Source: Patescibacteria group bacterium (GTDB lineage Bacteria; Patescibacteriota; Patescibacteriia; SG8-24; DYFX01). From it: a stretch of DNA of 64,000 nucleotides. The notes beneath the pieces are model-generated. The model searched no databases, was not told the DNA's origin, and saw only the letters and a list, made by a program, of their open reading frames with translations. A program made the translations under genes and the position numbers. Positions 3,603-64,000 of this stretch are shown piece by piece (within the stretch, counting starts at the first letter, position 1; every line of letters begins with the position of its first letter). The stretch covers positions 733,640 through 797,639 of the forward strand of contig CP129476.1 in NCBI GenBank assembly GCA_030583805.1, in the 5' to 3' direction.

Positions 3603-5115
<1,513 letters not shown>

Positions 5116-6659: not shown

Positions 6660-6660
6660 G

Positions 6661-6690: not shown

Positions 6691-6723
6691 TATGAAAGAA
6701 AAGCCGACCCGGTTATGGGTCGG

Positions 6724-7545: not shown

Positions 7546-7564
7546 CCATTTGCCGGCCGCTGAG

Positions 7565-34011: not shown

Positions 34012-34155
34012 ACGGATAAAAGGCTTGACAAAAAGCCTTTTTTCGTATAAGGTCACGAATCGTCGGCCTTGGGCCGGCGCACTGTTCCTGTCACATCCCA
34101 CCCTCTTGGCTCGCGGGCCTTCGCCTACGAGCCTGGTTCAACCAAGGAGCCATCC

Positions 34156-42583: not shown

Positions 42584-42587
42584 AGCG

Positions 42588-43601: not shown

Positions 43602-43716
43602 AGGTAGTAGTTATTCCCCTTTCGGGACTTCGCAGCATGCCGGCGCATGCGGCGGAGCCCCGCGCCCTCCGGAAGAGACCGGAGAGCTGGGGCACGCACG
43701 CGATGGTTTCGCGCGC

Positions 43717-44907
43717 TTAGAACGTGCCGGTCGCGATGAACGTGAGCACGTCGACGTAGTCGTTCGCGGCCGAGGTGATGGCGGAGATCGCCGCTTTCAC
43801 CAAGATGTCGGCCGTGTTGTTCGCCGTGCCGTCGAGTGCTGCCGCGTTCGTCGTAACGATGAACTGGGCGGCTGCGGAGTCGACGCCTCCGACGCGGTTG
43901 CCGCCGTTCGAGGTGCAATCGCCGTTATACGGCGCGACCGCGGTGGCGGAACCGGTGACGACGTTCGTCGCGGTGACGCACAGTCCGTACCCTTCCGTGC
44001 CGGCCACGAGATCGGTCACGCCGCCCGCACCTGCGGTGTAGGTCGTGCCGATCGTATCGCCGCTGGCCGAGGATTCGAGCGCATCGGCCGACCCACTGCC
44101 CTGCACGGTCACCAGCGCGCCGCCGGAGGCGTTGGTGTCGAGATCAAGGCAGATGTGGTTGGTCGCGGTCGAAACGGCTGCGGACGTGAGCGTGCCGAGC
44201 GAGACGGCGTACGGCGTGTTCGATTCCGATCCGCACGAGGATTGGATATCGATGTCGAAGGTGAGCGTCGGGCTGACCGTCGCGGTTACCGTGACCTGAT
44301 CATCGTCCATGATCGAAACCGCGACGCTGGTCGAGTGCGCCGATACGACGCCCATGTCGGTCATGGTGACGTCGACCGTTTGTGAACCGGCAGTGCCGGG
44401 ATTCGTCAGCGTGCCGTCAGCAGCCGTGCCAAGGATCTGGAAATCGATGACAGACGTCGCGGTCGATGACGTATACGAAGCGCTGCATGCCTTCACACGG
44501 AAGATATTGGCCGACGTGTCGACAGCTACGCCGACATCGTTGACGCCCGTCCCACAAGAAACGTCCGAGACTCCGGCGCCTTGCGCAACCGTCGTGACGG
44601 TTCGACCCGTGCCGTCGATGAACACGAAGTCGCTTGTGGCCCAGGTTCCCGAAGCCGAGCTGGTGAAGCCTGCCGGGAAATCGACGGCGATTACATCACT
44701 CGTCGTTGCCGAGCCGCTAAACGTATAGCTCAACGGGAGCGTCAGGCGGATCGTGTGGTTAGACGTGGTCGAGATCTTGAGCCGCGACATCGTATCGCTG
44801 GTCGAAGTAAAGCCGTCTGCGCGCACGGGAGCGAGAGGAAGCACCAATGATGCGACCGTCGCGAGTGCGGCCAGAAAGGCTGTTACTCTATTCAGGATCT
44901 TTTTCAT
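43717..44907 (-). CDS. secreted Ser/Thr/Gly-rich beta-strand protein (396 aa) with C-terminal motif NDYVDVLTFIATGTF
   Basis: Signal peptide MKKILNRVTAFLAALATVASLVLPLAPVRADG. The C-terminal ~200 aa are paralogous to the 258-aa protein (TPYAVSLGTLTSAAVSTATNHICL...; GYGLCV). Confidence 0.6.
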   Translation of the reverse strand: MKKILNRVTAFLAALATVASLVLPLAPVRADGFTSTSDTMSRLKISTTSNHTIRLTLPLSYTFSGSATTSDVIAVDFPAGFTSSASGTWATSDFVFIDGTGRTVTTVAQGAGVSDVSCGTGVNDVGVAVDTSANIFRVKACSASYTSSTATSVIDFQILGTAADGTLTNPGTAGSQTVDVTMTDMGVVSAHSTSVAVSIMDDDQVTVTATVSPTLTFDIDIQSSCGSESNTPYAVSLGTLTSAAVSTATNHICLDLDTNASGGALVTVQGSGSADALESSASGDTIGTTYTAGAGGVTDLVAGTEGYGLCVTATNVVTGSATAVAPYNGDCTSNGGNRVGGVDSAAAQFIVTTNAAALDGTANNTADILVKAAISAITSAANDYVDVLTFIATGTF

Positions 44908-45176
44908 ACGTACGTAATGAATGTTCTCTCAAGTACAATTCGAAGCCGCAATGGCTGCGGAGTCCGCACCTTCCCCTCGATGAACCGAGGAGCGGTGAGT
45001 CCGGCGCTTTCCCCGGCACGTGCAGGGGAAAGAGCGATTCCGCAGAAACGGTAATGCGCGCGGTCACGCGTTACCGTCGACCTTTTAGTTCCGGCCTTAG
45101 TGGCCGGGAGGAGCCTCGAAGCGTTCGGGGCTCTTCCCGGCCCTCCTGCACCGGACGATGCAGGAGAGCGTTCCGT

Positions 45177-45953
45177 TCAATACGTTGCGGTGACCGTGAT
45201 GGTCAGCGTGTCTTGGTAATCGTTATGCGCGGGGGTCACGGACGAGACCGCGGCTTTCGTCAGAAGTTCTCCGAAGGCGTTGGTGACGAAGCCGCTCGAG
45301 AACCAGACCGTCTGGTTGGCCGTCGTGAGGGCGCCGACCGCGTGATTCGTCGTGGTATCGCAGCTGCCGTTGAACGGCGTCGTGGCCGTGAAGCCGTTTT
45401 GGGCGTTCGAGCTGCAGACGCCGTATCCGGCCGTGCCCGCGACGAGCGTCGCCGTGTTCGAAGCGATGACGTCAGCCGGCGTTCCATTCGAGGCAAGACC
45501 CGCGTTCGCATCCCTGATTTGCACCACTTGCCCGCCCGGGGAGTTCGCGCTGACGCGGACGCAGATGCGATTCGAGGCGGTCGTGACGGCGCTGGTCGTT
45601 AGCGTGCCGAGCGGCACCGTATAGGGAGGGCTCGACGAGCTCGTCGCGTCGCAGGCTCCGGACTGCACGGCATAGTTCACGGTCAGCGTGATGTCTTCCC
45701 GCAAGCACTGATAGCCGACGCAAGCGAGATAACTGGCGCTTGAGAGGTCTTCCCCCGTGGGCGAGGACACCTCGGCGATCGTATCTTCGGCGATATAGCT
45801 CGCGGACGTACTGCGTTCTCCGCCGCCAGAGAAGGCGTCGAATGGGATGCGGTAATTTTGAGACGTCATGACCTGTGCGAACGCCAGTGCCGGCCAGAGT
45901 GCCTGGCACGCAATGACGGCGATCGTCGCAAATTGTCGTGTTAAGCGTTTCAT
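45177..45953 (-). CDS. secreted beta-strand protein (258 aa), paralogue of the 396-aa protein C-terminus; ends NDYQDTLTITVTATY
   Basis: Signal peptide MKRLTRQFATIAVIACQALWPALAFAQ. Shared blocks PPYTVPLGTLTTSAVTTASNRICV and GYGVCS. The terminal alternating beta-strand is like pilin/SCPU/TasA-type donor strands. Confidence 0.6.
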   Translation of the reverse strand: MKRLTRQFATIAVIACQALWPALAFAQVMTSQNYRIPFDAFSGGGERSTSASYIAEDTIAEVSSPTGEDLSSASYLACVGYQCLREDITLTVNYAVQSGACDATSSSSPPYTVPLGTLTTSAVTTASNRICVRVSANSPGGQVVQIRDANAGLASNGTPADVIASNTATLVAGTAGYGVCSSNAQNGFTATTPFNGSCDTTTNHAVGALTTANQTVWFSSGFVTNAFGELLTKAAVSSVTPAHNDYQDTLTITVTATY

Positions 45954-45962: not shown

Positions 45963-48900
45963 TTATGGCGTTTGTTCAGTCGTCGTTCCTGATTCCGTCT
46001 CCGGCGGAGGCTCCGGCGCTGCAGGCGGCTCTTCGACAACGGGTTCCGGCGGCGGGGGCTCTTCTTCTGGAGGCGTTTCCGGCGTACCGCTGCCCGATTC
46101 CGTCACTCCTCCCGTCGGAGGCGTGCCCGTGCCGGATTCCGTCGGTTCATCTTGCGGCGCTTCCTCTTCAACCGCCGCCTGCTCAAGCAGGCCGTCGATC
46201 GGCAAGATCCAGTACGTGAACGGCGTCTCATCGATTGCTCCCTGGGCAAGCTTCAGGATGAACGAACCCTGATGCTTCTCGGACACCCACCAGTTGGAGC
46301 CCGGATTGCCTTCGAAGGTGATCACGATGACCGATTCCTCCGTCACGTGCGGGTTTTCCACCATGATCGCGTCGTACCCTGCGCGGAGCCGCGCCTTGCC
46401 GACAACGCGGTCAGCCGCCGCATCAGCTCGCAACGTCAGTTTTCTCGTGTTCACTTCCTTCGCCTCGATGTGTTCGGCGACGAGATAGCCGTCCGAGGAC
46501 ACGCTCCAGAGGCCGCTGGTCGAGACGATGGCGGAGACGTTGGAGAGCGTCGAGTTCTTGAAGTCGAGGAGGGATTCGCCCGTGATCGACAGCGCACCGC
46601 CTGCGGTCGCTCCCGCGAGCGCGGCCGGGCCGTTCCACCACGAGGGGTTCACGAAGACGGTGATGCGTCCGGTGCCGCTGCCGTTCCAGCCTTCAAGCGC
46701 GATACCGATGACGCGTCCGGCTTCCGCCGCCTTCATACCGACGCCAGGCGTCGAGGACGAGGTGATCGGGTCGCCCGGCTTGATCTCGCCGGATTCGGTA
46801 TTCACCTTGACCGGTACGCGGCCGGCGAGAGCCACGGGCTGGGTACCCGCCGTGCTCTTGCCCGTCAGGAAGCCGGGCTTGGTCGAGATGACGCCGAGGA
46901 GGGTGTTTTCGTAGGCGGCGTCGGACTTCTTCACGCCGTAGCCGTTGGTATTCGCCGCGTCGACCATGACGATGTCGCCGGCGTCGAGGTCCGGTGCCGC
47001 CGGGAACGTTTCGGCGTAGTCGAGGCCGCCGTTCACGGTGAGGGAACCCGCCAAGGCGAGGTCGCCAGCCTGGTTCAGCGAGGCGAGCGTCTGGCCGTTG
47101 TCATTCTTGAAGGTGAGTTGGTAGGCGCTGTCGCTCGTGACGTCGTTGCGGATCGTGATGTTGCGGGTGACGGCGGTGTTCGAAGCGCTGCTCCAAGCGG
47201 AACCGCCGAATTTCAGTGCATACGAGGAGAAGGCGGTGCCCGTCGCCGAGGCGATGTCGAGCGGCTTGAAGGCGAAGTCGTCGGCGAAGATCGAGGACGC
47301 GCCGTCGTTCGTGATCGAGAGGCCGAGGTGGAAGCCAGGGTTCACGAAGATTTCAATCTTGCCTTCTCCGGGACCTTCCCAGTGATCAAGCGCGAAACCG
47401 ACGATCATGCCAGGCTTCGTCGCTTTCATGGCGACGCCTGAAATGGACGACGTCGTGAGCGGGTCGCCCGGACGAATCACGCCATTCGCGGCGGTAACGC
47501 GGGTCGGGACGCGTCCGATCAGGGCCACGGGAGCGGTGGTCGATGAAGAGGCCGTTACACCCTTACCGAAGGATTGGTACGGGTTGGTGGAGATGACACC
47601 GATGATCTTTGCCTCGTACGGAGCGGTCGATTCCGTAAGGATCGACGACGTGTTCGTGGCGTATGTTTCGAGACGCACGCCCGTCAGCGGGTTGAAGAGC
47701 TCGTCCTGGTACGAGATGACCGCGTCGGTGGCGATGAGCAGGGTTCCGGTCGGATACGCTTCTTCCAAGGCGTACCACTCGGCAACGTCGGACGGCGTCG
47801 AGCTGCACTCCCGGAACTCAACGTCGCCAAAACTGTCGGCCGTGTCTTTACAGACGCCAATCGTCGTGTCGCCCGTAGGGTTAATGTCGAACTCGATGTT
47901 GCCTTCGACGTCGAGTGTCGCTCCCGGAGCGGTGCCGCCGATATGTACTTGACCACCCGCGTCGATTGAGAACGGCGTGGAGTCGCTGCCATAGTTGCCG
48001 CCGTCGTCTTCAACACGAAGTGCAAGGCCAGTACCGGCGTAATCGATCTGCAGACCAGCGCCGCTCGCTGCCGTGTTGTTCTGCTCCACGCGCAACACGT
48101 CAGCCGTATGCGTACAGGTGCCGAGCGTGGTGATACAGCCGTCGGAGAATTCACCGACCGCAGCACTCAGCGTCAACACCTGGGCACTGCCGTTGATGGT
48201 GGGCTGACGTACCGCGCGGAAGGTCGAGCCGCCGCTCGTGGTGGTCGTGGTATACGTCGGCTGCTGGTTCAACAAGATCATCGAGCCAGTGCTCATAGCC
48301 GCGGCCGTCGAGATATTTTCGATCAAGAGACCGGCACCGGACGAGATATCATCGAGACTCACGGAAATTGCGTTACCCGTCGTGATGGTCTGGGCCTGGA
48401 GCTGGAGCGAGTTACTGTTTGTGCGCGTGGTCAGGATGTCGAGGTCGGCATTCGGGGTGCTGTCACCGATACCGATTTCTCCGGAAGAATCAATCGTCAG
48501 ACGGGCTGTGTCGGCGGTACCAAGGTGCAGAGAGTTGCTGCCGTGAATCTGGAGCGAGTTGGAAAGGACGCCGGACAAGATATCACCTTCATCACCAATA
48601 CCGATGGATGCGATGAGGCTGCCCGCTTCCGTGTACTCAATCTGGGCGAGCGTGGCGCCGCTGTTAGTGTTGGCGATCCTGAGGGTCGTTCCGGTCGTAT
48701 CGGAAATGTGCAGTTTGCCTGAAGGAGAAGCAGTACCGATACCGACGCTTCCGGAGCTCGCAATGTAAATGCCGGAAGTTTCCGCATGCTGCGGGCCAAT
48801 CTGAATCGCCTGGCCGGAGGAGTAGATCTGCGCACGGCGGCCGTTCGTGTCGCGCCAGCCGAGCTGCAGGATCGACGTGCCGCTCGTGTCGTAGGCGATC

Positions 48901-51900
48901 TTGGCCGAGCCGCCCGAGAGCCACAAATCCTTCCAGCGGCGGTTATAGTCGCCGAGGGAGTAGGTGTTGTCGGCTGACGGCGTGAGGTTGCCGGTGATAC
49001 GAGCGCCGGTCGTGGTGATCACGTGCGTCGTGGAAGCGGAGCCGACGGTCAGGCTGTTGCGAATCGTCGTCGTGCCCGTGGTCGCACCCATCGTGAGGTC
49101 GGTCGCCGCAAAGGCGAATTCAAGCGTTGGCGGGGTCGCAGCGAGCTGGCCGAAGGATGCGCCGATGTCGATTGTGCCGCCGTTCACGGTGAACTCAGTA
49201 GAGCCGAACAAGGTGAAGTTGTCGTCGAGAATTGCCTTCGTCTGTCCCGCCGTGATGAAGTCGATGCGGTTGTCGCCGCCGTTCGCGAAACCGGTGTCCG
49301 GATCATCGATGAAAGCGATCGAGGCGTCGTTGCCGCCGCCGCTGGCGAAGAAGGCGTCGGTGGCGATCCGCGTCGCGGTCGAGCTCACGGTGAACATGCG
49401 GATGCTGTAGTCGCCGGCGGCGTTGGTACGGTTCTGCACCTCGAAGATGTTGCCGGTACCGCCGATGGTATCGCCGATCGTGAGGGCGCCAACGGATGGC
49501 GTGATCGAGATTTCCGGAGAACCCGTGGCGGCGAGATACGCGGAGTTGAGCGGTGCCGATGGCGCGCTGACCCACGTCAGCGTGCCGGAGCCGTTGTTCT
49601 GCAGGAAGGTCGAGGCGCCGCCCTGTGAAGACGGCCAGGAGTACGGCACGTTATTAATCTTCACGAGGTTACCGGACTGGTTGACTTCGAATGTACTTGT
49701 AGCGGTACCAACGGTGAGTTTGTTTGCAGGCGCGCTGTTACCGATACCGACCAGGCCGGTAGGACCAACCATGAACATCGGGGTGCCGCCGACCGTGGCC
49801 TGGATCAGGTTTTGAGCGAAGCCGGCTACCGGCGCGATAGAGAGGGCTGGGAACGGCCAGAATTCGTCGGCATCTTGCGCGATTGTGGCAGAACGCGAAA
49901 GTTCAAAGGCGCGACCGGCAACGATATTGCCTTGGTGATCGATGGTGAAAATGTCGGTGCCGCCAAACGTCGTAACCCGAACCGCGGTCCCATCGTTATC
50001 CACCGTATGTCGGACATGCAGCGTTGCAGTCGGAGCGTTTGAGGAGATAGCGACCGATGTCGCACTGACCGTCAGGTAGCGCTGGCTGTAATCCCCTGCC
50101 GCGGTCGTACGGTTCTGCACTTCGAAGACGTTGCCGGTACCCGAAAGCGTATCGGCAATTGTGAGAGCGCCGACGGACGGCGTAATCGAGATTTCCGGAG
50201 AGCCGGTGGCGGCAAGATACGCCTGGTTCAGATTGCCGCCGCTGGAAACAACAGACCACGAGAGGTTGCCGCTGCCGTCATTCTGCAGCACCGTCGAGCC
50301 GCCGCCCTGCGAGGCCGGCCAGGAGTACGGAACGTTGTTGACCTTGATCAGGTTACCGGCCGCGTTGACTTCGAACGTGCTGGTGGCAGTACCAACCGTC
50401 AGTTTGTTGGCCGGCGAAGTGTTGCCGAGTCCGAGGCGTCCTCCGGTGAGGATGAGCGCGCTGCTACCCGATGAGTCGCCAATGCGGAGCGCGCCGGTTT
50501 CCGCGTGCAGGTAAAGGTCTGTATTTCCCGTGTCCGCATCACCAATGTAACCGCGACGCGTGGAGTTGTTTTGATCGAAGAACGTTATGTAACCAAGGCC
50601 GCTGTTGCCGGTTCCGTTCGATGCCTGAATACGGAACGTCTCTGAAGCGCCTGTGATATGCAAGGGTGCCGACGGCGTGGCCGTGTTAATACCGAGGCGG
50701 TACGCCGTAATGTTGTTGCCAGGGTTGATCAAGACGGCCGTCGAGCTGACGGTGAAGTAGCGTCCATCGAAGTCGCCCGCCGTGGTCGTACGACTCTGAA
50801 CCTCGAAAAGGTTGCCGATGCCGGTTCCCTTATTGATACCGCCCGTAAGCTGGTCGGCGATGGTCAATCCGCCCTGCGTGCCGTTCGCAAACAGTTCTGC
50901 CGTGGAAGTTGAGCTGTTAAACGTTTGAAGCATCGTTGAACTGCCGCCACAGCCCGTACACGTGCCGGTCACCGTCAAATTCGTGATGGTCGTACCGGTC
51001 GAGCTCACGTAGAAGTACCGATGCGTGTAGCCTCCGACTCCGGACGTGTTCTGAATCTCGAAGATGTTTGACGTCGGGGAAACTGCGTCGTCGGCGACGG
51101 TCAAACGTGCGCTCGGCGCATTCGTGCCGATGGCGAGGTTGCCGGCGTTGTTGAGACGCATGCGCTCAACGCTCGTACTCGATCCATTGGCGGTCGTCAT
51201 GAACGTGATGCGTCCAGGCATGTCGTTATTGCCCGGCGTATCATCGACCGACACCTTAATGAAAGCGGCTGGAATGTATTCATCGCCGTCATAGCCCCAC
51301 GACGACCAGTTCAAGATGTCGTCGCCATTCTCAACGACGAGCTCGCTGCCGGATGAGCCGCGCGCCTTCTGCACGACAATCTGGTTGCCGTTGTTGTCCG
51401 TCGAGAACCTTGTCAGGTACACCGAGGTTGACGTGCTTTGAATATCAAGCTTGCCGATTGGATTCGTCGTGCCGATACCGACAAGACCAGAAGGACTGAT
51501 CGATATACCTTGGCTATCACCCAAACTCGGCGTGATTTGAATCTGCTGGCCCGAAGAGTGAATGAGGGCGCGGCGGCCGTTCGTATCACTCCAGCCAAGC
51601 CTCAAGATCGACGTGCCGCTCGTGTCATATGCGATGTTGGCGCTGCCGCCCGAGAGCCACAAATCCTTCCAGCGAAGCGCCGGGTCACCAAGCGTATACG
51701 TATTGTCGGCAGACGGCGTGAGGTTGCCTGTCACGCGCGCGCCGGTCGTTGTCAGCGCGTAGGTGGTCGAAGCACTGCCGATAATCGTCGCGGTCGAGCT
51801 GATCGTGAAGTAGGGGCTCGTGTTAAGGCTGTTTGAGACTTCGAAGAGGTTGTGCGTCGGTGTCGCGACAGAGTCGCGCACGGTCAACGTTGCGGTCGGG

Positions 51901-54900
51901 GTGTAGGAGGATCCGCCGATCAGCACCTTACCGTTCGTCATTACCGCGAACTTCATCGCATTACCGGCAACGTTGTTGGAGTGGACAGAGAAGGCGTGAA
52001 TGTCCGCCGAAGACGTGTTCGCGATGACGGCCAGCGCTTGTCCGCGAGGCGAAGCACCGGCGCCGCTCGTTGTCGTTGCAATCACGCTGTTAGACGCGAC
52101 GACCTGGAATGTGCCGGTGCCGATCGGCAGCGGCGTGACGTAAACCGACGTCGAGCTCACCGTAAAGTAGCGGGACGAATAGTCTCCTGCCGCCGTCGTG
52201 CGATTCTGAACCTCGAAAATATTGCCCGTGCCCGAGAGCGTGTCGGCGATCGTGAGAGCTCCCTGCGTGGAGTTGGTATAGATTTCCGTCGTACCAGTCG
52301 CCGCAAGGTAGGTCGCATTCATCGTCGGCGTGCTGCCCGTCGAGAGCTCCGTGAAGCCCGCTCCGTTGTAGACGTACAGCGCATCTCCCGTGCTATTCCA
52401 CACGATGTCGCCCTCTGCCGTTCCCGTCACCGCCGTCGGGACGCCGGCGAAGGTCGGGATCTGGAGACCCTGGTTCACGGCATGCGCCGGGGCGATGAGG
52501 CGGTTGATGTAGCGCGTCGAGGTCGAAGAAACCGAGAAGAGGCGGTTCGTGAAAGAATCCTGGACTTCGAAGATGTTGTTGGACTGGGCGGCAAAGCCGC
52601 GGAGCTGGAACTGGCTCGTCGTCGAAGCGGAGACGGCAAGCATGCTGCCCGTGACGTCGATGTCGCCTTCGGCATCGAGCTTGAAGCGCAAGGAGCCGTT
52701 GTTGGCGATCGAGAAGAGCGTCTCGTTGCCGGTCGGGGCCGAGGGGTTCACGTAGACCGTGCCGTTCGAGAGGCCGGTACCCTGCGGATCGCCGTTCACG
52801 ACCAGGCTGTTGCGGATCCGGGTCGTGCCGGGGCCGTTCGCGCCCATGATGAGCGTCGTGGCCGCGCCGCCGACTTCCAAGATTGTCGGCGTCGCAGCCA
52901 GGAAGCCGGAAGAGGCGCCGAAGTCGATGACGCCGCCGTTCACGATGAGTTCGGTCGAGCCGAACAGGGTGAAGTTGTCTTCCAGAATGATCTTCGTCTG
53001 TCCGGCCGTGATGAAGTCGATACGGTTGGTGCCGCCGTTCGCGAAACCGGTGTCCGGATCATCGATGAAGGCGACCGAGGCGTCGTTGCCGCCGCCGCTG
53101 GCGAAGAAGACGTCGGAAGCGATCCGCGTACCGGTCGCGCTCACGCTGAACATGCGGATGCTGTAGTCGCCGGCGGCGTTGGTGCGGTCCTGCACCTCGA
53201 AGATGTTGCCGGTGCCGCCGAAGGTGTCGCCGATCGTGAGAGCGCCGACGGACGGCGTGATCGAGAGTTCCGGAGAACCCGTGGCGGCGAGATATGCCTG
53301 GTTGAGGTTGGTGGAACCTCCGGCTGCGGCCCAGGAGAGGTTGCCGTTGCCGTCGTTTTGCAACACTGTCGAGGCGCCGCCCTGAGAGGAAGGCCAGGAG
53401 TACGGGACGTTGTTGATTTTCACGAGGTTTCCTGACTGGTTCACCTCGAACGTGCTGGTCGCGGAACCGACGGTCAGGCGGTTGGCGGGATTCAAGTTAC
53501 CGATTGAAAACTTGTGATCCAGAGCGTTGTTCGTCGCATTGACCAGCGTCGCCGTCGCGCTGACGGAGAAGTACTTCTGCGAAAGATCGCTGTTACCAAT
53601 CTCAAAGATATTGTTGGTCGTGCCTACAAGTGCCGCAGCCGTAAATGTCGCGTTCAAGCTTGTCGGTGTAAGATTGCCGACGCCGAAACGACCATTCTCC
53701 GAGCCCGCAAAGATGGTGCTGAATGCGCCATTTACTATCACGAATTCCGCATTGGAGCCATCGTTGTCACTGTCGAGCTGGAGGATCATGCCACCTTCCC
53801 CATAAATGCCAAAGTTGCCGTCACCCGTGACTTGGATGGTGTTGTCGCTCTCAGCCGTCGCAAGCACGAGCGCGGGGCCGGCGGTGTACGTCGTTCGAAT
53901 CTGGTTTGCAATGGTCGTAGCCGTAGCACTCACGGTGAGATAGCGAGTACTCCAATCACCCGCAGCGGTCGTCCTGTTTTGGATCTCGAAAATGTTACCG
54001 GTACCCGATAGCGTATCGGCGATTGTGAGGGCACCGATTGAGGGCGTGAGCGAAATTTCCGGAGAGCCGGTGGCGGCGAGATATGCCTGGTTGAGGTTGG
54101 TGGAACCTCCGGCTGCGGCCCAGGAGAGGTTGCCGTTGCCGTCATTCTGCAGCACGGTCGAGCTGCCGCCCTGCGAAGCCGGCCAGGAGTACGGGACGTT
54201 GTTGACCTTGATCAGGTTACCGGCCGCGTTGACTTCGAACGTACTGGTAGCAGAGCCGACCGTGAGGCGATTGGCGGGCGCGCTATTGCCGATGCCGACC
54301 AGGCCGGTAGGACCAACCATGAACATCGGGGTGCCGCCGACCGTGGCCTGGATCAGGTTTTGAGCGAAGCCGGCTACCGGCGCGATAGAGAGGGCTGGGA
54401 ACGGCCAGAATTCGTCGGCATCCTGCGCGATCGTGGCAGAACGCGAAAGTTCAAAGGCGCGACCGGCAACGATATTGCCCTGGTGATCGATGGTGAAAAG
54501 GTCCGTGCCGCCAAACGTCGTAACCCGAACCGCGGTCCCATCGTTATCCACCGTATGTCGGACATGCAGCGTTGCAGTCGGAGCGTTTGAGGAGATAGCG
54601 ACCGATGTCGCACTGACCGTCAGGTAGCGCTGGCTGTAATCCCCTGCCGCGGTCGTACGGTTCTGCACTTCGAAGACGTTGCCGGTACCCGAAAGCGTAT
54701 CGGCAATTGTGAGAGCGCCGATCGAAGGGGTAATGGAGATTTCCGGCGAACCGGTGGCGGCGAGATACGCCTGGTTCAGGTTCACGAGACCGTTGGCTGC
54801 AACCCAGCTCAGCGTGCCTGCTCCGTTGTTCTGCAGCACCGTCGAGGCCGCGCCCTGTGAGGACGGCCAGCTGTAGATAACATTGTTAATTTTGCGAATA

Positions 54901-57900
54901 TCACCGCTGAAGTCGACTTCGAACGTGCTGGTGGTGGAGCCGACGGTGAGGCGGTTGGCAGGTGCGCCATTGCCGATACCGACGTTATAGTGCCCCAGGT
55001 TATTGAACGGGTTGATGAGCGTTGACGTCGAACTCACGGTGAAATACCGATAACTGTAATCACCGCCCGTATTCGTACGGTTCTGGATTTCGAAGACGTT
55101 AAATGTCGGAGACGCGACCGTGGATGCAACGCTCAGGAACGCTGAAGGCGTCAGCGTGTTCAAACCGGTCACGCTCGTCGTGTAGAAGTTCAGTCGATTA
55201 GAGCCGCCTGCCTGGATGAAGAGGTTGCCGCCGGAACCGTTCGTACCAATCGTGCCGCTCGTGGCGTCTTGGTTGATGATGAAGCGCAATGTGCCTCCTG
55301 TTGCCAAGTTTACGCGCGATTCCGTGCCGTGGTTGATGACCATGGCCGGAAGACTGCCGGCAATATGGAGAGAGTATTGCGGGTTTTGCGTGCCGATACC
55401 GACGTTTCCAGCCGCATCAATCGTAATACCTTGATTCTGATTGCCGGCACGCAACGTGAGCGGAACCTCTGCCGGCGTCTTGATCAAGCCGCGCAAACCA
55501 TTCGTCGTGTTGAATCCAAGCTGCATGATCGTCGTACCCGACGTGTCGTACGCGATGTTGGCGCTGCCGCCCGAGAGCCACAAATCCTTCCAGCGAAGCG
55601 CCGGATCGCCAAGCGAGTACGTGTTGTCCACGGAAGGCGTAAGATTGCCGGTCACGCGCGCGTTCGCCGTGTTCAGAGCAGACGTGCTGGAAGATGAGCC
55701 GAGCGCCAGGATTCCGCTTTCATCAAGCGTCATGACCGTACCGCCTGCGCCGTTCAGCCAGCTATACGCCTCGCTAGAATCGCCATTTGCATCAACACGG
55801 AAGAAGATCGAATCGTCACTGTAAAGATTGAAACCGTTCTCGCCGATGCCGTAGATCTCGACACCGCCGGCACTGCTCGTAATTGCCACAACCGTTCCAC
55901 CAGCAGGATTCGAGATCGCTAGTGCGCTGCTGATCGAAGCCGACGCCGTGTTAATCAAGGTGTTCGTTGAGCTCACGGTCAAGTATTTCGTGCTCCAATC
56001 CCCCGCCGCATTCGTGCGGTTCTGAATCTCGAAAATGTTGCCAGTGCCTGAGAAGGTGTCGGCAATGGTAAGCGCGCCGATCGACGGCGTGAGGGAGATC
56101 TCGGCGGTGGAAGTCGAGGCGAGATAGGCCTGATTCAGGTTCACGAGACCGTTGGCTGCAACCCAGCTCAGCGTGCCGGCTCCGTTGTTCTGGAGCACCG
56201 TCGAGGCTGCGCCCTGCGAAGAAGGCCAGCTGTAGACGACATTGTTGATCTTCAAGATATTCCCGCTCTCGTCGACTTCGAACGTGCTCGTGCCGGAACC
56301 GACGGTGAGCCGGCTAGCCGGTTTCAGGTTGCCGATGCCGACATTGCCGTTATCCTGAATCACCAACTTTGTACCGGTGGTGCCGCTCGCTTTGTAGAAT
56401 CCGAGAGAATCGGCTGTGCCGTTCAACGAAGACCGGTTCGTCAGCATCATCCATGAGGCGTTGGTGGCTCCGCCCGTCAACCAGAACGCCGCGTCATTAC
56501 CGTCACCGCCGCTCGCACTGAGCTTAATACGTGCCTCGGAACTCGTGACGTACAGGCGGTCGGAAGCGGTCGGCGGAGTCGCGCCCATGCCGACAGTACC
56601 GTTGCCACGGACCGTAAAGGCAGTGTTTGCACCCGCTGTCGTCGTGACGTTCAGTGCCGCATCGCCTGAACTGCTTGTTTGCGTTTGGATGAAAACACCA
56701 TTGCTGTTGGTCACGTTACTGTTGATGAAACGCATTCCGGCGCCGTTTGCCGAAGTATCAAGCACATCGATCTTGTATTGCGAACTTGGAGCCGTCCCCA
56801 CCCCGACATTGCCGGCGAGGTACGTGCTGGTGGAGCTCACCGTGAAGTAGCGGGACGAGTAGTCGCCCGCGGCGTTGGTGCGGTCCTGGATCTCGAAGAT
56901 GTTGCCGGTGCCCGAGAAGGTGTCGGCGATCGTGAGAGCACCGATCGAAGGCGTGAGAGAGATCTCGGCGGTGGAGGTCGAAGCGAGGTAGGCCTGGTTC
57001 AGGTTGACGAGGCCGGACGCGTCGACCCAGGTGAAGTTGCCGGAGCCGTCGTTTCGCAGCACCGAACCGAGCGCGCCCTGGGAGGACGGGAAGCGCGCGG
57101 GGAGACCGTTGATCGTTTCGAAGTTTCCGGAAGAGTTGACGACAAGCGTATTCGTGGTACCCACGATGAAGCGGGCCCCGGCGCCGACCGAGGTCGCGGT
57201 CGCGGAGACCGAGAACAGGCGGTCGGTGATCGTACTCTGCACTTCAAAGATGTTGTTGCTCTGCGAGGCCGCGCCCCGGAACACGAACTGCGCCGTCGAG
57301 GAGGCGGCGGTGGCGAGGAGAGAGCCCGTGTGCGTGATGTCGCCTTCCTTGTCGATCTGGAAGCGGACGCCTCCGTTGTCGGCGATGCCGAAGAGGGTTT
57401 CCGAAGCGGAAGCGTTCGCGGGGTTGATGTAGAGAGAGCCGTTGCCGACGCCCGTACCCTGCGGATCGCCCGTAATGACGAGGTTGCCGTTGGCCGTGGT
57501 ACTCGGGATGTAGGCGGTCGTGGAACCGGAAGAGGTGACGTCGAGATCATCGAGGCGGTCGGCGTTCAGGGCATAGGCGGCGGCGGTGAGACGCTTCCGA
57601 GGGGTCATTTCGGCGTCCGCGCCGATCGTAATGCCGAGAGTCACGACGTTGTTGTCGAAGAGACCGTCCGGAATCTCGTTGTCGCCCGCTTCGCCGAGCT
57701 GGGTCGAGAAGACGCCGTTCGTCACCGTGACGGATTTGGCCGTCGGGGTGCCGCAGGAGCCGCGAGCCGAATACAGACAGGTGCCGTCGCCGTCGTACAG
57801 GCGGAAAATGACGGACAGAGCCCCGTTCGGGACGGGTACGCCGCCCGAATCGGTGACCCGGGCTTGATAGTTCAGGACCTTGGGGACGGAGTTGGCGGCG

Positions 57901-58019
57901 TAGGCTGGCGTCGGGAATGAACCCGACAGCAACGACAAGACCAGGGCGGCCAAAACGGCCGTCCTCGCCGCGCGTTTCAACGCGCGGAGAAGCGTAGCGA
58001 TGTACGCGGTCTCTCTCAT
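45963..58019 (-). CDS. giant secreted repeat protein (about 4,018 aa) built from >8 copies of a ~130-aa module, with an acidic Pro/Glu/Thr-rich C-terminal tail
   Basis: Signal peptide from M16 (MRETAYIATLLRALKRAARTAVLAALVLSLLSGSFPTPAYA). Recurring module ...ANRLTVGSATSTFEVN..GNLIKVNNVPYSWPSSQGGASTVLQNDGNGNLSW...NLNQAYLAATGSPEISITPSVGALTIADTLSGTGNIFEVQNRTTAAGDYS.RYLTVSAT.... Near-identical DNA copies occur inside the gene. Confidence 0.75.
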   Translation of the reverse strand: MRETAYIATLLRALKRAARTAVLAALVLSLLSGSFPTPAYAANSVPKVLNYQARVTDSGGVPVPNGALSVIFRLYDGDGTCLYSARGSCGTPTAKSVTVTNGVFSTQLGEAGDNEIPDGLFDNNVVTLGITIGADAEMTPRKRLTAAAYALNADRLDDLDVTSSGSTTAYIPSTTANGNLVITGDPQGTGVGNGSLYINPANASASETLFGIADNGGVRFQIDKEGDITHTGSLLATAASSTAQFVFRGAASQSNNIFEVQSTITDRLFSVSATATSVGAGARFIVGTTNTLVVNSSGNFETINGLPARFPSSQGALGSVLRNDGSGNFTWVDASGLVNLNQAYLASTSTAEISLTPSIGALTIADTFSGTGNIFEIQDRTNAAGDYSSRYFTVSSTSTYLAGNVGVGTAPSSQYKIDVLDTSANGAGMRFINSNVTNSNGVFIQTQTSSSGDAALNVTTTAGANTAFTVRGNGTVGMGATPPTASDRLYVTSSEARIKLSASGGDGNDAAFWLTGGATNASWMMLTNRSSLNGTADSLGFYKASGTTGTKLVIQDNGNVGIGNLKPASRLTVGSGTSTFEVDESGNILKINNVVYSWPSSQGAASTVLQNNGAGTLSWVAANGLVNLNQAYLASTSTAEISLTPSIGALTIADTFSGTGNIFEIQNRTNAAGDWSTKYLTVSSTNTLINTASASISSALAISNPAGGTVVAITSSAGGVEIYGIGENGFNLYSDDSIFFRVDANGDSSEAYSWLNGAGGTVMTLDESGILALGSSSSTSALNTANARVTGNLTPSVDNTYSLGDPALRWKDLWLSGGSANIAYDTSGTTIMQLGFNTTNGLRGLIKTPAEVPLTLRAGNQNQGITIDAAGNVGIGTQNPQYSLHIAGSLPAMVINHGTESRVNLATGGTLRFIINQDATSGTIGTNGSGGNLFIQAGGSNRLNFYTTSVTGLNTLTPSAFLSVASTVASPTFNVFEIQNRTNTGGDYSYRYFTVSSTSTLINPFNNLGHYNVGIGNGAPANRLTVGSTTSTFEVDFSGDIRKINNVIYSWPSSQGAASTVLQNNGAGTLSWVAANGLVNLNQAYLAATGSPEISITPSIGALTIADTLSGTGNVFEVQNRTTAAGDYSQRYLTVSATSVAISSNAPTATLHVRHTVDNDGTAVRVTTFGGTDLFTIDHQGNIVAGRAFELSRSATIAQDADEFWPFPALSIAPVAGFAQNLIQATVGGTPMFMVGPTGLVGIGNSAPANRLTVGSATSTFEVNAAGNLIKVNNVPYSWPASQGGSSTVLQNDGNGNLSWAAAGGSTNLNQAYLAATGSPEISLTPSIGALTIADTLSGTGNIFEIQNRTTAAGDWSTRYLTVSATATTIANQIRTTYTAGPALVLATAESDNTIQVTGDGNFGIYGEGGMILQLDSDNDGSNAEFVIVNGAFSTIFAGSENGRFGVGNLTPTSLNATFTAAALVGTTNNIFEIGNSDLSQKYFSVSATATLVNATNNALDHKFSIGNLNPANRLTVGSATSTFEVNQSGNLVKINNVPYSWPSSQGGASTVLQNDGNGNLSWAAAGGSTNLNQAYLAATGSPELSITPSVGALTIGDTFGGTGNIFEVQDRTNAAGDYSIRMFSVSATGTRIASDVFFASGGGNDASVAFIDDPDTGFANGGTNRIDFITAGQTKIILEDNFTLFGSTELIVNGGVIDFGASSGFLAATPTILEVGGAATTLIMGANGPGTTRIRNSLVVNGDPQGTGLSNGTVYVNPSAPTGNETLFSIANNGSLRFKLDAEGDIDVTGSMLAVSASTTSQFQLRGFAAQSNNIFEVQDSFTNRLFSVSSTSTRYINRLIAPAHAVNQGLQIPTFAGVPTAVTGTAEGDIVWNSTGDALYVYNGAGFTELSTGSTPTMNATYLAATGTTEIYTNSTQGALTIADTLSGTGNIFEVQNRTTAAGDYSSRYFTVSSTSVYVTPLPIGTGTFQVVASNSVIATTTSGAGASPRGQALAVIANTSSADIHAFSVHSNNVAGNAMKFAVMTNGKVLIGGSSYTPTATLTVRDSVATPTHNLFEVSNSLNTSPYFTISSTATIIGSASTTYALTTTGARVTGNLTPSADNTYTLGDPALRWKDLWLSGGSANIAYDTSGTSILRLGWSDTNGRRALIHSSGQQIQITPSLGDSQGISISPSGLVGIGTTNPIGKLDIQSTSTSVYLTRFSTDNNGNQIVVQKARGSSGSELVVENGDDILNWSSWGYDGDEYIPAAFIKVSVDDTPGNNDMPGRITFMTTANGSSTSVERMRLNNAGNLAIGTNAPSARLTVADDAVSPTSNIFEIQNTSGVGGYTHRYFYVSSTGTTITNLTVTGTCTGCGGSSTMLQTFNSSTSTAELFANGTQGGLTIADQLTGGINKGTGIGNLFEVQSRTTTAGDFDGRYFTVSSTAVLINPGNNITAYRLGINTATPSAPLHITGASETFRIQASNGTGNSGLGYITFFDQNNSTRRGYIGDADTGNTDLYLHAETGALRIGDSSGSSALILTGGRLGLGNTSPANKLTVGTATSTFEVNAAGNLIKVNNVPYSWPASQGGGSTVLQNDGSGNLSWSVVSSGGNLNQAYLAATGSPEISITPSVGALTIADTLSGTGNVFEVQNRTTAAGDYSQRYLTVSATSVAISSNAPTATLHVRHTVDNDGTAVRVTTFGGTDIFTIDHQGNIVAGRAFELSRSATIAQDADEFWPFPALSIAPVAGFAQNLIQATVGGTPMFMVGPTGLVGIGNSAPANKLTVGTATSTFEVNQSGNLVKINNVPYSWPSSQGGASTFLQNNGSGTLTWVSAPSAPLNSAYLAATGSPEISITPSVGALTIGDTIGGTGNIFEVQNRTNAAGDYSIRMFTVSSTATRIATDAFFASGGGNDASIAFIDDPDTGFANGGDNRIDFITAGQTKAILDDNFTLFGSTEFTVNGGTIDIGASFGQLAATPPTLEFAFAATDLTMGATTGTTTIRNSLTVGSASTTHVITTTGARITGNLTPSADNTYSLGDYNRRWKDLWLSGGSAKIAYDTSGTSILQLGWRDTNGRRAQIYSSGQAIQIGPQHAETSGIYIASSGSVGIGTASPSGKLHISDTTGTTLRIANTNSGATLAQIEYTEAGSLIASIGIGDEGDILSGVLSNSLQIHGSNSLHLGTADTARLTIDSSGEIGIGDSTPNADLDILTTRTNSNSLQLQAQTITTGNAISVSLDDISSGAGLLIENISTAAAMSTGSMILLNQQPTYTTTTTSGGSTFRAVRQPTINGSAQVLTLSAAVGEFSDGCITTLGTCTHTADVLRVEQNNTAASGAGLQIDYAGTGLALRVEDDGGNYGSDSTPFSIDAGGQVHIGGTAPGATLDVEGNIEFDINPTGDTTIGVCKDTADSFGDVEFRECSSTPSDVAEWYALEEAYPTGTLLIATDAVISYQDELFNPLTGVRLETYATNTSSILTESTAPYEAKIIGVISTNPYQSFGKGVTASSSTTAPVALIGRVPTRVTAANGVIRPGDPLTTSSISGVAMKATKPGMIVGFALDHWEGPGEGKIEIFVNPGFHLGLSITNDGASSIFADDFAFKPLDIASATGTAFSSYALKFGGSAWSSASNTAVTRNITIRNDVTSDSAYQLTFKNDNGQTLASLNQAGDLALAGSLTVNGGLDYAETFPAAPDLDAGDIVMVDAANTNGYGVKKSDAAYENTLLGVISTKPGFLTGKSTAGTQPVALAGRVPVKVNTESGEIKPGDPITSSSTPGVGMKAAEAGRVIGIALEGWNGSGTGRITVFVNPSWWNGPAALAGATAGGALSITGESLLDFKNSTLSNVSAIVSTSGLWSVSSDGYLVAEHIEAKEVNTRKLTLRADAAADRVVGKARLRAGYDAIMVENPHVTEESVIVITFEGNPGSNWWVSEKHQGSFILKLAQGAIDETPFTYWILPIDGLLEQAAVEEEAPQDEPTESGTGTPPTGGVTESGSGTPETPPEEEPPPPEPVVEEPPAAPEPPPETESGTTTEQTP
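49560..50230. repeat. intragenic near-identical direct repeat, copy A (~670 bp, ≥95% identical to copy B)
   Basis: Directly aligned by eye with 54110-54780. For example ...ggatcaggttttgagcgaagccggctaccggcgcgatagagagggctgggaacggccagaattcgtcggcatc... matches over hundreds of bp. The listed ORFs 49812..50042 and 54360..54590 translate almost identically. Confidence 0.8.
54110..54780. repeat. intragenic near-identical direct repeat, copy B
   Basis: See copy A. The offset is about 4.55 kb. Further diverged copies lie near 48.9, 51.6, 53.2 and 55.5 kb. Confidence 0.8.
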
Positions 58020-58106
58020 GTCGTTTTCGGGTGTTTTCACCCGGTTCGGTTCCCTGCCAGGCAAGGCGCCGAACCGGATGCCGGAGCGTTGGCTCCGGAC
58101 TCCGGC

Positions 58107-61100: not shown

Positions 61101-62087
61101 GCGCGCGGTCGTTCCCGTGATCAAAACGGCCTGCACGTTGCTAATCGACGGCGCCGTCGAATCCGGCGTCGTAAACGTGAAGTCGCCCGAAACGGTCTCA
61201 GTCGTACCGACGCCTTGCGAGCGTACGCGGTAGTGGTATGTCGTGCCCGGCGTCAGCCCGGAAAGATGCACGGAATGGTTGAAGGTGTTGCCGGGGGTTG
61301 AGGCATTGCTGCCGTAAGCAGCCGTTAAGCCGTAGTCCACCACGCTCGTTGAAGACACGTCAGTCTCCCACAGAACGTCCACGTCGGTTTCCGTAAGGTT
61401 CAACGTGCGGACGTTCATGATGACCGGCGGGTTCGGCGTGCCGCCTCCGCCGCCGCCTCCGCCGCCGCCGGCAACCTCGGCCGACACCGTCACCTGATCG
61501 TTGTCATTGTTCATCGTGTAGGCGAGGCCGGTATCGCTGAAACCGCCCGCAATGCCCACCGCATGAGCGAAAGCGCCTGAAGGATTGACGATTTGGTTGG
61601 CTCCGGCCCCTCCGGTGGTGGCGTTCAAGCCAATGCGGATACGCACGCAGGTATCGGTCGGGATCTCCCCTGCTGCGGCATCCGTCGGCGGCGTGAAGGT
61701 CACAACCTGCCCAGAAATACCGACGCCCCACGTCGGGCTCGTGCTGGGCGATGAAGCCAGCGTCTTGTCGGTAAACGATCCCGTGCAGTCGTTGGTCGGC
61801 GCGGACGTATCCAGCGCCAGGTCGATGTCACCGACCCCAATCGACGAGAGGTTATAGTCAGACTCGTACGTCACCGTAATGGTGTCGCCTGAACTTTGAA
61901 CACCGGTCGGTGTCACGAATTTGATTTCGTGATCCGCCGACGCATTTACGGCCAACCTGGTCACCAGGACGGAATAGCCGGTAATTGTTGCCGCTCGTGC
62001 AGCAAACGACAACAAAAACACGGCCATGGCCCCGATGAGGACAGGCAGGAACTTGGTTAGATTGTGGGCGCGGCGCTGGGACGACAT
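58107..62087 (-). CDS. large cell-surface protein (about 1,326 aa): signal peptide, FN3-like repeats, three Cys-rich CGNAICDAGENYLSCPADC repeats, three CarboxypepD_reg-like beta-sandwich domains and TM segments
   Basis: Trimmed to the ATG at 62087 (MSSQRRAHNLTKFLPVLIGAMAVFLLSFAARA). FN3-like blocks with TTYHYRV/TTYHFRA/GTLYHFSV and NGTTYYY. Triplicated CGNAICDA(G/N)E(N/D)YLSC. GxYxF...PGEYR...GY motifs three times. Confidence 0.7.
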   Translation of the reverse strand: MSSQRRAHNLTKFLPVLIGAMAVFLLSFAARAATITGYSVLVTRLAVNASADHEIKFVTPTGVQSSGDTITVTYESDYNLSSIGVGDIDLALDTSAPTNDCTGSFTDKTLASSPSTSPTWGVGISGQVVTFTPPTDAAAGEIPTDTCVRIRIGLNATTGGAGANQIVNPSGAFAHAVGIAGGFSDTGLAYTMNNDNDQVTVSAEVAGGGGGGGGGGTPNPPVIMNVRTLNLTETDVDVLWETDVSSTSVVDYGLTAAYGSNASTPGNTFNHSVHLSGLTPGTTYHYRVRSQGVGTTETVSGDFTFTTPDSTAPSISNVQAVLITGTTARITWDTNEDADALVDYGLTASYGSNASNATMTNAHTVNLSGLSPSTTYHFRATSKDASNNTASSGDFTFTTADTVPPTISNIFTDAITQTSARVNWATDELADSRVRYGLTDSYGAVVSSGSLVANHQITLNGLAAGTLYHFSVSSADAMFNGATSTDQTFTTLADSTPPSNVSSLNVTPGNAQNALSWTNPGDADFAGVRIQRSTTAHPASPTAGTNVYDGIGTSMTDTGLVNGTTYYYTAFAYDNSGNFSSGAIGSGTPFDTVPPGPVSNFTVMAGDSVNALSWTNPGDVDFSNVQIQRSVTGYPATSGQGTAIYTGSGQNYNDTGLVNGTTYYYSIFARDTSGNFSGPAQASGTPSGPPPSCGNAICDAGENYLSCPADCTAPAPVCGNAICDAGENYLSCPADCAAPPPSCGNAICDANEDYLSCSVDCAAPTPTHALNANLVRAFALSRTLELHKNASGEYRILPNRSMTVLVPIAAVTGNVTTLTLNLASGSYLLERTALSVPEEGYVADITSPSAIGPVTGTITAIFDDGATATAAIRVRVEPLGVITHAQEDQQVPLSGVSVKLQKRVGSWIDWDALPYQQANPFVTNGAGTYAFMAPPGEYRIQATRDGYRTYESASINLATEVVNASFEMIAVPPSVTEVYVPGAPVTENIANIAKALGAQGEYITRILTNEVIRDPRVETTTTQFLVPAAAAVTTAVVATAVQATSIVSYLYFLLTQPLLLIGRRKRKGYGTVYNALTKLPVDLASIRLYRTTTNRLVRTAVTDKQGRYAFIVEPGEYRLEVTKPGYVFPTKYLTGRKEDAQFLDLYHGESIVVSSEGGIITANVPLDPIEMIKTTRRLFLEELGRRVQNVLAFSSVVMTLIAALLYGHLYLYILVVAQLVLYLLFRRLARTPRPKNWGIIYDEHTKRPIPFAVARIIETQYNKTLESRIADSKGRYNFLVGSSKYFITVEKPGYEPTKTNELDLTKKGGEAGVVSRDIPMREKRPE

Positions 62088-62641
62088 GCGTCGATTTCCA
62101 CAAAGCGCGCAGCATTCGGGCACGACGAAAAACTCCGACAAGGGTCGTGATTGGACAACTCGAAAGGAGCCTCACGCGTTATGGGCGCAAGCCTATTTCC
62201 TTCACGCAGATACGCCTCCCCTTTCCCCGCTGACCACGGGAATTAGGTACTACAAAAACAATTCTGCGAGTAGGAGGCGGGACTCGCGGCCCCGTTCATT
62301 CAGGTCGTCTTTACCTGAACGATTCGCATAGCCACCTTGGTAATCACCCCGTAGTGGATGCGAGAAGAATGCTGCACGATATATTCTCCTCGCACTATGC
62401 AAGGGCATAATACCATAAAATAGGGGAAAAGTCAATCCAAATCTGGGCTAACCTTAGCCTATATATTTCTTTTCCACAGGTCATTTATTTGATATTTCAC
62501 AACTTGTACACAGAAACTCACACTCTATCCACAGAGTTGTGCACAGTTGTGTGTGAGTTGTCTTACTTGTCAAGTATATATTAGACAAGCACCTCTTTTC
62601 TCTAATGTTACCACCCAGGTTTTTTAACGTGGTTTACTTAT

Positions 62642-62655
62642 GTTTCATGTGAAAC
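62642..62655. repeat. palindrome GTTTCA-TG-TGAAAC, copy 1 (arms extend to 8 bp: atgtttca..tgaaacat)
   Basis: Read directly from the sequence. Confidence 0.85.
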
Positions 62656-62736
62656 ATCCACTTTTCTTTATGTGACATGAGGCAATTTTACCTGAGTCTG
62701 AACTTCATTCACTACCGTAGAATGGCCTTAGTGATT

Positions 62737-62750
62737 GTTTCATGTGAAAC
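62737..62750. repeat. palindrome GTTTCA-TG-TGAAAC, copy 2
   Basis: Read directly from the sequence. It lies 95 bp from copy 1. Confidence 0.85.
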
Positions 62751-62840
62751 ACACATACCTAGTATTTCGCGCGACCGTACAAGTTAATTGCTTCCCCAAC
62801 TTCTACAACGTCACATTTGCACGCCAGGGAAGTCAGCACT

Positions 62841-62854
62841 GTTTCACATGAAAC
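62841..62854. repeat. palindrome GTTTCA-CA-TGAAAC, copy 3 (same arms, inverted centre)
   Basis: Read directly from the sequence. It lies 104 bp from copy 2 and 33 bp from the tRNA-Ala 3' end. Confidence 0.85.
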
Positions 62855-62886
62855 AAAACACCCCCGAAAGAATCGGAGGTGCTTTG

Positions 62887-62962
62887 TGGTGGACCAATGG
62901 AGATTCGAACTCCAGACCTCTGCAATGCGAATGCAGCGCTCTACCAACTGAGCTATTGGCCC
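62887..62962 (-). tRNA. tRNA-Ala (anticodon CGC)
   Basis: The reverse complement gives gggccaa-tagctcagttggtagagc-gctgca-ttCGCat-tgcag-...ggttcgaatctcc-attggtcc-a-CCA. G3:U70 is present. Confidence 0.9.
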
Positions 62963-63114
62963 ATGGTTTTACTCACAGTTGAGGACAACATGTGGATGAA
63001 ATGCATCATACACCATGTGTCGCACAATACTTTTTGTCAAAGATAACATGGACAAACATCACTCTAGCAACCACCGAGTGCCCGCAGCCTCCAGGCACAC
63101 GAGGAGGCGGAGGG

Positions 63115-63189
63115 TGGTGCCCCCGGCGTGAGTCGAACACACATCCACCCCTTAGGACGGGGTTGTTCTATCCATTGAACTACAGGGGC
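63115..63189 (-). tRNA. tRNA-Arg (anticodon CCT)
   Basis: The reverse complement gives gcccctg-tagttcaatggatagaac-aacccc-gtCCTaa-ggggt-...gttcgactcacgc-cgggggc-a-CCA. Confidence 0.85.
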
Positions 63190-63280
63190 ATGCTGCCACA
63201 CCGGTGCGGTCGACGCGGCTGGCTGTCGCCTCGTTGCTCGCGCTATAGTATAGGCACGATTTTTTATCTGGTCAATTCCC

Positions 63281-64000
63281 ATGACGACGTTCCTCCTCAT
63301 TGTCGGCCTTGTTCTCCTTCTCGCACTGGCATTCGTGTATTTTGCGCTCTCGAAAAAACTGGATGGACTCGGCGAGCAATCGGCAGCTCGACTGATCAAC
63401 GACAACATCCAGAAGATGAACGATCGTTTGAACGACCGGCTCACGGAAGCAGCCAGGTACATCGGCTCGCTTGGCCAGGAGCTGAAGTCGATGCAGACGA
63501 TCGGCAAGAACATCGAGGACCTTCGCGCCGTCTTCATGAACTCCAAACTGCGCGGCAACTTCGGCGAGCAGGTGTTAAACGACATGCTGACGAACAATTT
63601 CCCGAAGGAGCAGTTCGAGCTCCAGCATAAGTTCCGGGACGGCCAGATTGTTGATGCCTTGATCAAAACGAAGGACGGCGCGATTCCCGTCGACTCGAAA
63701 TTCCCGATCGACAATTTTAGGAAAATGCTGGCTGCGACGACGGAGGAGTCACGCGAGTCCGAGCGGCACGAGTTCAGAAAGGCCGTTAAAAAACATATCG
63801 GCGACGTTGCCAAAAAATACATCTTGCCGGGCGAGGGGACGGCGAATTTTGCCGTTATGTACGTGCCATCCGAGGCGACGTTTTACGAAATCATTTCGGG
63901 CAGCGAGGAGCTGGGGGATTACGCCAAACAGAGCCGGGTCATGATGGTCTCGCCAAACACCATGTCCTACTTCCTCCATATCCTGCGCCTGGGCCACGAG
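63281..64000 (+). CDS. rmuC: DNA recombination protein RmuC, 3'-truncated at the window edge
   Basis: ATG at 63281. N-terminal TM LLIVGLVLLLALAFVYFAL, then a coiled coil and the RmuC core (FNGR...VDALIKT..IPVDSKFP...FAVMYVPSEA...MVSPNT). There is no stop before nt 64000, so it is absent from the ORF track. Confidence 0.8.
   Translation, partial: MTTFLLIVGLVLLLALAFVYFALSKKLDGLGEQSAARLINDNIQKMNDRLNDRLTEAARYIGSLGQELKSMQTIGKNIEDLRAVFMNSKLRGNFGEQVLNDMLTNNFPKEQFELQHKFRDGQIVDALIKTKDGAIPVDSKFPIDNFRKMLAATTEESRESERHEFRKAVKKHIGDVAKKYILPGEGTANFAVMYVPSEATFYEIISGSEELGDYAKQSRVMMVSPNTMSYFLHILRLGHE

Follow-up and report, generated by a model that had tools for sequence, protein, structure and literature searches.

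A compact cluster of predicted parS sites beside conserved DnaA boxes in a tRNA-flanked spacer of Paceibacter-like Patescibacteria

In the 64-kb stretch of DNA analysed here (the window), three copies of a short palindrome lie in an AT-rich spacer that has a tRNA-Ala(CGC) gene on one side and the gene for a giant surface protein on the other. Comparison of these palindromes with known protein-binding sites and with the corresponding loci of relatives indicates that they are very probably chromosomal parS sites, that is, predicted loading sites for ParB at an origin-proximal centromere. The feature is real and conserved, yet of an ordinary and known kind; what is new is the place, an uncultured lineage of Paceibacter-like Patescibacteria in which parS shares an unusually compact module with DnaA boxes, the terminator of two tRNA genes and a promoter for a giant surface-protein operon.

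A scan of the window placed the motif GTTTCA-NN-TGAAAC at exactly 62642-62655, 62737-62750 and 62841-62854, the starts given in an earlier sequence-only reading of this DNA, and no further copy was found in the 64 kb when one mismatch was allowed. The mean chance expectation for the motif is 0.11, none of 100 dinucleotide shuffles reached three copies, and 500-bp-block shuffles that keep local composition gave no site within two mismatches in 200 trials. These shuffle tests reject a chance origin of the palindromes and show the motif to be above expectation, a point on which the sequence-only reading had made its own proposal depend. The true repeat unit is the 16-mer TGTTTCAYRTGAAACA, whose copies start 95 and 104 bp apart: parS-1 (62641-62656) and parS-2 (62736-62751) both read TGTTTCATGTGAAACA, and parS-3 (62840-62855) reads TGTTTCACATGAAACA, their reverse complement, no strand being assigned to any of the three. 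The GC content over 62400-62800 is 0.365-0.39, against about 0.6 in the flanks and the genome, which bears out the AT-rich dip described earlier between the surface-protein gene and tRNA-Ala; the reported closeness of the third copy to the tRNA was likewise confirmed, 32 nt separating the end of parS-3 from the 3' end of tRNA-Ala.

The consensus of parS, the nucleation site of ParB/Spo0J, is TGTTTCAC-GTGAAACA (that is, TGTTTCACGTGAAACA) as quoted from Jalal et al. Each of the three window sites is a 16-bp inverted repeat that agrees with TGTTNCACGTGAAACA at 15/16 positions, within the one to two mismatches allowed for membership. When the window and ten relatives (L001-L010) were scanned for sequences within two mismatches of the consensus, 24 sites were recovered, 3 in the window and 21 in relatives, and all of them were confined to the tRNA-Ala-proximal spacer of eight related genomes. 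No parS-like site was found outside this spacer in the approximately 140 kb scanned, and none in the three distant loci; the clustering of few copies in one region, which is typical of parS, thus holds for the approximately 140 kb covered. Four sites match the consensus at all 16 positions and keep the central CACGTG (L001 at 7355, L004 at 6381 and 6479, and L006 at 112), and the site at 6094 of L002, TGTTTCACGTGGAACA, is the reverse complement of TGTTCCACGTGAAACA, which we take to be the parS of Bacillus subtilis spo0J.

A position table of the 24 sites gives 1.0-2.0 bits of information within the 16 positions of parS, against approximately 0-0.6 bits directly outside them; the values inside the 16-mer are inflated by the choice of sites within two mismatches, and the steep drop at the flanks stays informative. 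Variation among the sites is mostly limited to the central CG (C/T and G/A). No compensatory change was found in the palindrome arms across the 24 sites, and this invariance without covariation points to a protein-binding site and not to an RNA or DNA helix. The centre of all three window copies (62648-62649, 62743-62744 and 62847-62848) is TpG/CpA in place of the consensus CpG; this loss is consistent with CpG decay or with relaxed selection at the dyad centre, and we assume that ParB tolerates a TG/CA centre.

A known site similar to parS is the Noc-binding site NBS, TATTTCCCGGGAAATA, a 16-bp palindrome of the same architecture that is bound by a ParB paralogue and differs from parS at G2, A7 and their symmetric partners. 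At these specificity positions the 24 sites carry G2 in 23, A7 in all 24, T10 in 23 and C15 in all 24, so that all but one half-site are of the parS type, and identity with NBS was rejected. NBS sites also differ in being dispersed and avoiding the terminus, whereas the sites described here are clustered.

Relatives were found by a scan with an RmuC fragment, one genome being taken per GTDB species, which yielded seven close (L001-L007) and three distant ones. The RmuC sequences of the close relatives are 76-93% identical to that of the window, and these genomes are labelled Patescibacteria, Minisyncoccota, Candidatus Paceibacter and, in several cases, 'Gammaproteobacteria'. Three of the latter (L002, L004 and L005) are entered as 'uncultured Gammaproteobacteria bacterium'; their RmuC is 84-92% identical to that of the window, and they have its tRNAs and its parS spacer, while L010, deposited under the same name, is distant, with an RmuC of 39% identity and neither the tRNAs nor parS; the label is probably wrong in all four cases.

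The order tRNA-Arg, tRNA-Ala, AT-rich spacer is kept in all seven close relatives, and perfect copies of GTTTCA-YR-TGAAAC occur in the same spacer of each. The sequence-only reading had called for a search of relatives with attention to the genes that the motif precedes; beyond this recurrence, no second gene in the 64 kb has the motif in front of it. A seven-genome alignment resolves the region into conserved blocks divided by unalignable AT-rich DNA, and the sites are kept in syntenic position while their flanks have diverged. The number of parS-like sites per spacer ranges from one to four, with two to four in complete spacers and one in L006, whose spacer is cut by a contig end. Spacings between neighbouring copies in the relatives are 143, 88, 122, 84, 214, 86, 103, 56, 98, 71, 116, 47, 68 and 134 bp, and the fractional part of the corresponding helical turns is scattered from 0 to 0.9 across genomes. 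The earlier proposal that all copies lie on one face of the helix is therefore correct as arithmetic within the window (9.05 and 9.9 turns) and is lost in the relatives, where the phase is scattered. Since copy number (2-4) and spacing (47-214 bp) both vary, phased cooperative looping has not been maintained by selection, and the cooperative or looping control suggested on the basis of the window was not upheld.

Only the tRNA-proximal site has a fixed place, 28-32 nt from the 3' end of tRNA-Ala in seven of eight genomes, because it is fused to the tRNA terminator. In the window, tRNA-Ala(cgc) (62887-62962, minus strand) forms the right border of the spacer and is followed by tRNA-Arg(cct) (63115-63189, minus strand) and, beyond both, by the RmuC gene, which starts at 63281 on the plus strand. 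The transcript of the two tRNAs ends in an intrinsic terminator at 62856-62886 (minus strand; -24.7 kcal/mol, z = -4.3), whose U-tract UUUUGUUU runs into parS-3 and forms its first arm on the minus strand. The terminator stem is GC-rich and varies in sequence among genomes, its pairing being kept by compensatory changes.

The same spacer carries conserved DnaA boxes. A DnaA-box-like sequence, TTTTCCACA, at 62470-62478 (plus strand) is identical in L001-L003 and lies approximately 55 bp from a tandem pair, CTATCCACA-gag-TTGTGCACA, at 62525-62545 (plus strand), which was defined by alignment with relatives; there, the tandem site reads TTATCCACA-N3-TTATnCACA, with two perfect boxes in L003. Another box-like sequence, TCATCCACA, lies between the two tRNA genes at 62991-62999 (minus strand), with conserved counterparts at +104 (L001 and L002) and +122 (L003). 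Allowing one mismatch, seven 600-bp spacers contain 20 DnaA boxes against 1.3 in composition-matched shuffles (maximum 5), a 15-fold enrichment, and all five boxes of the 8.4 kb of L003 fall in the spacer. The stretch from the DnaA boxes to the first parS holds, at 62567-62589, a conserved element of the form TGTCAAG-N7-GTnGaCAa (no strand assigned), of which TGTCAAG is invariant in seven genomes and reads on the minus strand as a -35-like TTGACA. A 70%-identical copy of this element was observed at 63034-63056, between the two tRNA genes.

The position of parS copies directly beside conserved DnaA boxes makes it most likely that the spacer is a combined origin-proximal centromere. In the general literature on the ParB mechanism, parS is 'usually found near the oriC', and the palindrome also occurs within predicted oriCs of Bradyrhizobiaceae (PMC2275245). 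In that Ori-Finder paper of 2008, TGTTTCACG appears as a 'species-specific DnaA box' of Bradyrhizobiaceae, an assignment that looks like a historical misreading because the palindrome TGTTTCACGTGAAACA in those oriCs is parS. The DnaA-box cluster beside parS suggests either oriC or another kind of DnaA-box cluster. It resembles oriC, and equally datA of Escherichia coli and the DBCs of B. subtilis, in its several TTATCCACA-like boxes, its tandem pair and its location in AT-rich intergenic DNA (GC 0.37-0.39), and the boxes align between genomes. Unlike oriC, it has no adjacent dnaA or dnaN, no detectable GC-skew switch and no recognised unwinding element. In the window, L001, L005 and L006, GC skew follows gene strand without an origin-type switch, and leftward of the spacer the plus strand has a slight excess of G, the reverse of the usual origin polarity, a comparison that carries little weight with only 1.5-8 kb of sequence to the right of the spacer. 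Neither dnaA nor dnaN occurs in the 62 kb on the left or the 8 kb on the right, gidA is not adjacent either, and inspection by eye of the sequence after the tandem boxes revealed no convincing DnaA-trios or 13-mer unwinding element.

The orientations of the rRNA and rpoBC genes in the window are mutually inconsistent as guides to replication. A 16S rRNA gene precedes tRNA-Ile, tRNA-Phe and tRNA-Pro (3603-5115 and 5945-7640), and no 23S or 5S gene was found anywhere in the 64 kb, which indicates that the rRNA genes are unlinked. Clusters of DnaA boxes that are not origins occur in other bacteria. Given the skew without a switch, the absence of dnaA and dnaN nearby, the inconsistent gene orientations and these non-origin clusters, the chances that the spacer includes oriC itself appear evenly balanced.

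On its other side, the spacer contains the promoter of the surface-protein operon (62407-62435, minus strand), with a -35 TTGACT, a 17-nt spacer and an extended -10 TG-n-TATTAT. The promoter is conserved, its -35 being the invariant TTGACTTT (62435-62430) and its -10 aligning as an extended TGnTAnnnT, and in this respect the AT-rich spacer is indeed a control region, as the sequence-only reading had it. A different palindrome, GCTAA-NN-TTAGC at 62447-62458 (no strand assigned), abuts the -35; it is present as a single copy per locus in L001-L005 and L007, its arms being invariant while centre and flanks vary, and is a better operator candidate for the surface-protein operon than parS, or may be an element of oriC.

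Downstream of the promoter runs a non-coding leader of approximately 310 nt (62088-62400, minus strand), upstream of the ATG at 62087. The leader (6800-7117 in L001, 4283-4600 in L003, and others) shows a mean column identity of 73% even with the distant L005 and L007 included, and it is conserved far better than the rest of the spacer. It has no conserved open reading frame and no 3-base codon periodicity, and it contains hairpins with compensatory changes, for example GAGGAGAAU...AUUCUUCUC, with some covarying helices. A scan of 62000-63300 against Rfam matched only the tRNAs and assigned the leader to no family; one possibility is that giant surface-protein operons of Patescibacteria have here a structured 5' leader RNA not described before.

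The surface protein itself has 1326 aa with fn3/CarboxypepD_reg domains and is encoded on the minus strand, and an exact look-up of its sequence returned a single match, a 5-kb Logan contig from SRR24881069. The operon measures roughly 16 kb. Directly downstream of the fn3 protein, an open reading frame of approximately 4000 aa (45963-58064, minus strand) has no Pfam match, and the further downstream frames at 41609-45953 have no family match except a weak hit to a WxL-interacting protein. Elsewhere, the window, part of a reduced Patescibacteria genome, encodes a SET-domain protein at 26149-26583 (minus strand; E = 8e-24) and a cNMP-binding, CRP-like regulator at 34069-34815 (plus strand).

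The presence of this regulator is relevant to the proposal of the sequence-only reading that a dimeric transcription factor uses the palindromes as operators to control the surface-protein operon or the tRNAs, for which the CRP/FNR-like protein at 34069-34815 would be the candidate. CRP/FNR-family sites are palindromes of 14-16 bp of the TGT...ACA type. The palindromes share with such operators, and with the PrfA box (TTAACA-NN-TGTTAA), the 6-N2-6 geometry and a location upstream of an operon with a conserved promoter. However, their sequence is that of canonical parS, they lie 205-430 bp upstream of the -35 (the nearest at approximately 205 bp), neither their number nor their spacing is conserved as in an operator array, they stand before no other gene in 64 kb, and the operator-like place at the -35 is held by GCTAA-NN-TTAGC. 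We regard this explanation as decidedly improbable; what survives of the proposal is that the palindromes are selected sites for a dimeric helix-turn-helix protein, with the sequence of parS and not of a private operator.

It has very little probability that the palindrome is a lineage-specific, DnaA-type initiator element of oriC and not a ParB site. The palindromes do adjoin canonical DnaA boxes, and such a role was proposed for TGTTTCACG in Bradyrhizobiaceae by Ori-Finder (PMC2275245), but the 16-mer is an experimentally established ParB site in the literature, and the conservation of canonical TTATCCACA-type boxes in the same spacer makes a second DnaA specificity unnecessary. Extremely improbable, and already largely refuted, are readings of the palindromes as hairpins (terminators or REP/MITE-like repeats) or as relic att or arm-type recombination sites at tRNA-Ala, the last having been the alternative offered by the sequence-only reading. 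AT-rich DNA beside a tRNA 3' end would suit them, and the palindrome can fold into a weak 7-bp hairpin of -5.5 kcal/mol. Against a hairpin, the arms lack compensatory variation and the real terminator is the adjoining GC-rich stem, and against an att site, no direct repeat of the tRNA 3' end was found, no integrase was seen among the scanned open reading frames, and the spacer is syntenic in eight genomes; Rfam gave no match.

As parS, the palindromes can be set beside known chromosomal systems of parS with ParB (Spo0J), ParA and SMC, which are reportedly present in B. subtilis, Caulobacter, Thermus, Corynebacterium, Streptomyces and others. They share with these systems the 16-bp palindrome TGTTTCACGTGAAACA, at 15/16 positions in the window and 16/16 in relatives, a small number of copies grouped in a single region, the neighbourhood of DnaA boxes, and conservation across related species. 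They differ in that two to four copies are packed unusually tightly, within about 200-420 bp of one intergenic spacer of roughly 400 bp, that parAB, dnaA and gidAB do not adjoin them, that one copy is fused to a tRNA terminator, and that the central CpG is TpG/CpA in all three window copies.

According to the general mechanism described in the literature, dimers of the CTPase ParB (Spo0J) would nucleate on the two to four parS sites; the bound ParB would take up CTP, close into a clamp and slide onto the flanking DNA, and the resulting partition complex would be moved by ParA and load SMC, by which newly replicated origin regions would be segregated. We infer ParB binding, clamp spreading over the adjoining promoter and tRNA genes, and origin function at this locus. 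Pfam scans of approximately 46 open reading frames of the window and L001 revealed no ParBc (PF02195), ParA or DnaA domain, and tblastn searches of the window and every fetched locus, in which Spo0J, Soj and DnaA were the queries, found nothing; parB, parA and dnaA are absent from the 64-kb window and from the 8 kb rightward in relatives. A protein search with B. subtilis Spo0J gave only Bacillus ParBs among the best 120 matches listed, and one with a synthetic ParB consensus only Anaerolineae/Firmicutes-type ParBs among the best 120 matches listed. Many CPR genomes carry annotated ParB-domain proteins. In the literature searched, judged by titles and abstracts, we found no description of parS, ParB or oriC in Patescibacteria/CPR.

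Spreading of ParB from the parS sites would reach the surface-operon promoter and the two tRNA genes, and a secondary effect on transcription is therefore conceivable, purely by extrapolation from the layout. Because parS lies approximately 200 bp from the promoter of the giant operon and is fused to the tRNA terminator, ParB-CTP clamps could silence these genes or time their expression. We consider it unlikely that the parS cluster also silences or times the surface operon and tRNA genes with replication, as a combined origin, centromere and expression switch in these reduced genomes, or that the lineage does without a canonical ParB and another protein reads the conserved sites.

The parS spacer reveals no new mechanism. 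It would mark where the chromosome of an uncultured, Paceibacter-like lineage of Patescibacteria has its centromere and probably also its replication origin region, and could serve as a landmark to orient and curate metagenome-assembled genomes and for coverage-based estimates of growth rate. Our findings predict that the minimal-genome epibionts of this lineage retain a canonical ParABS system.
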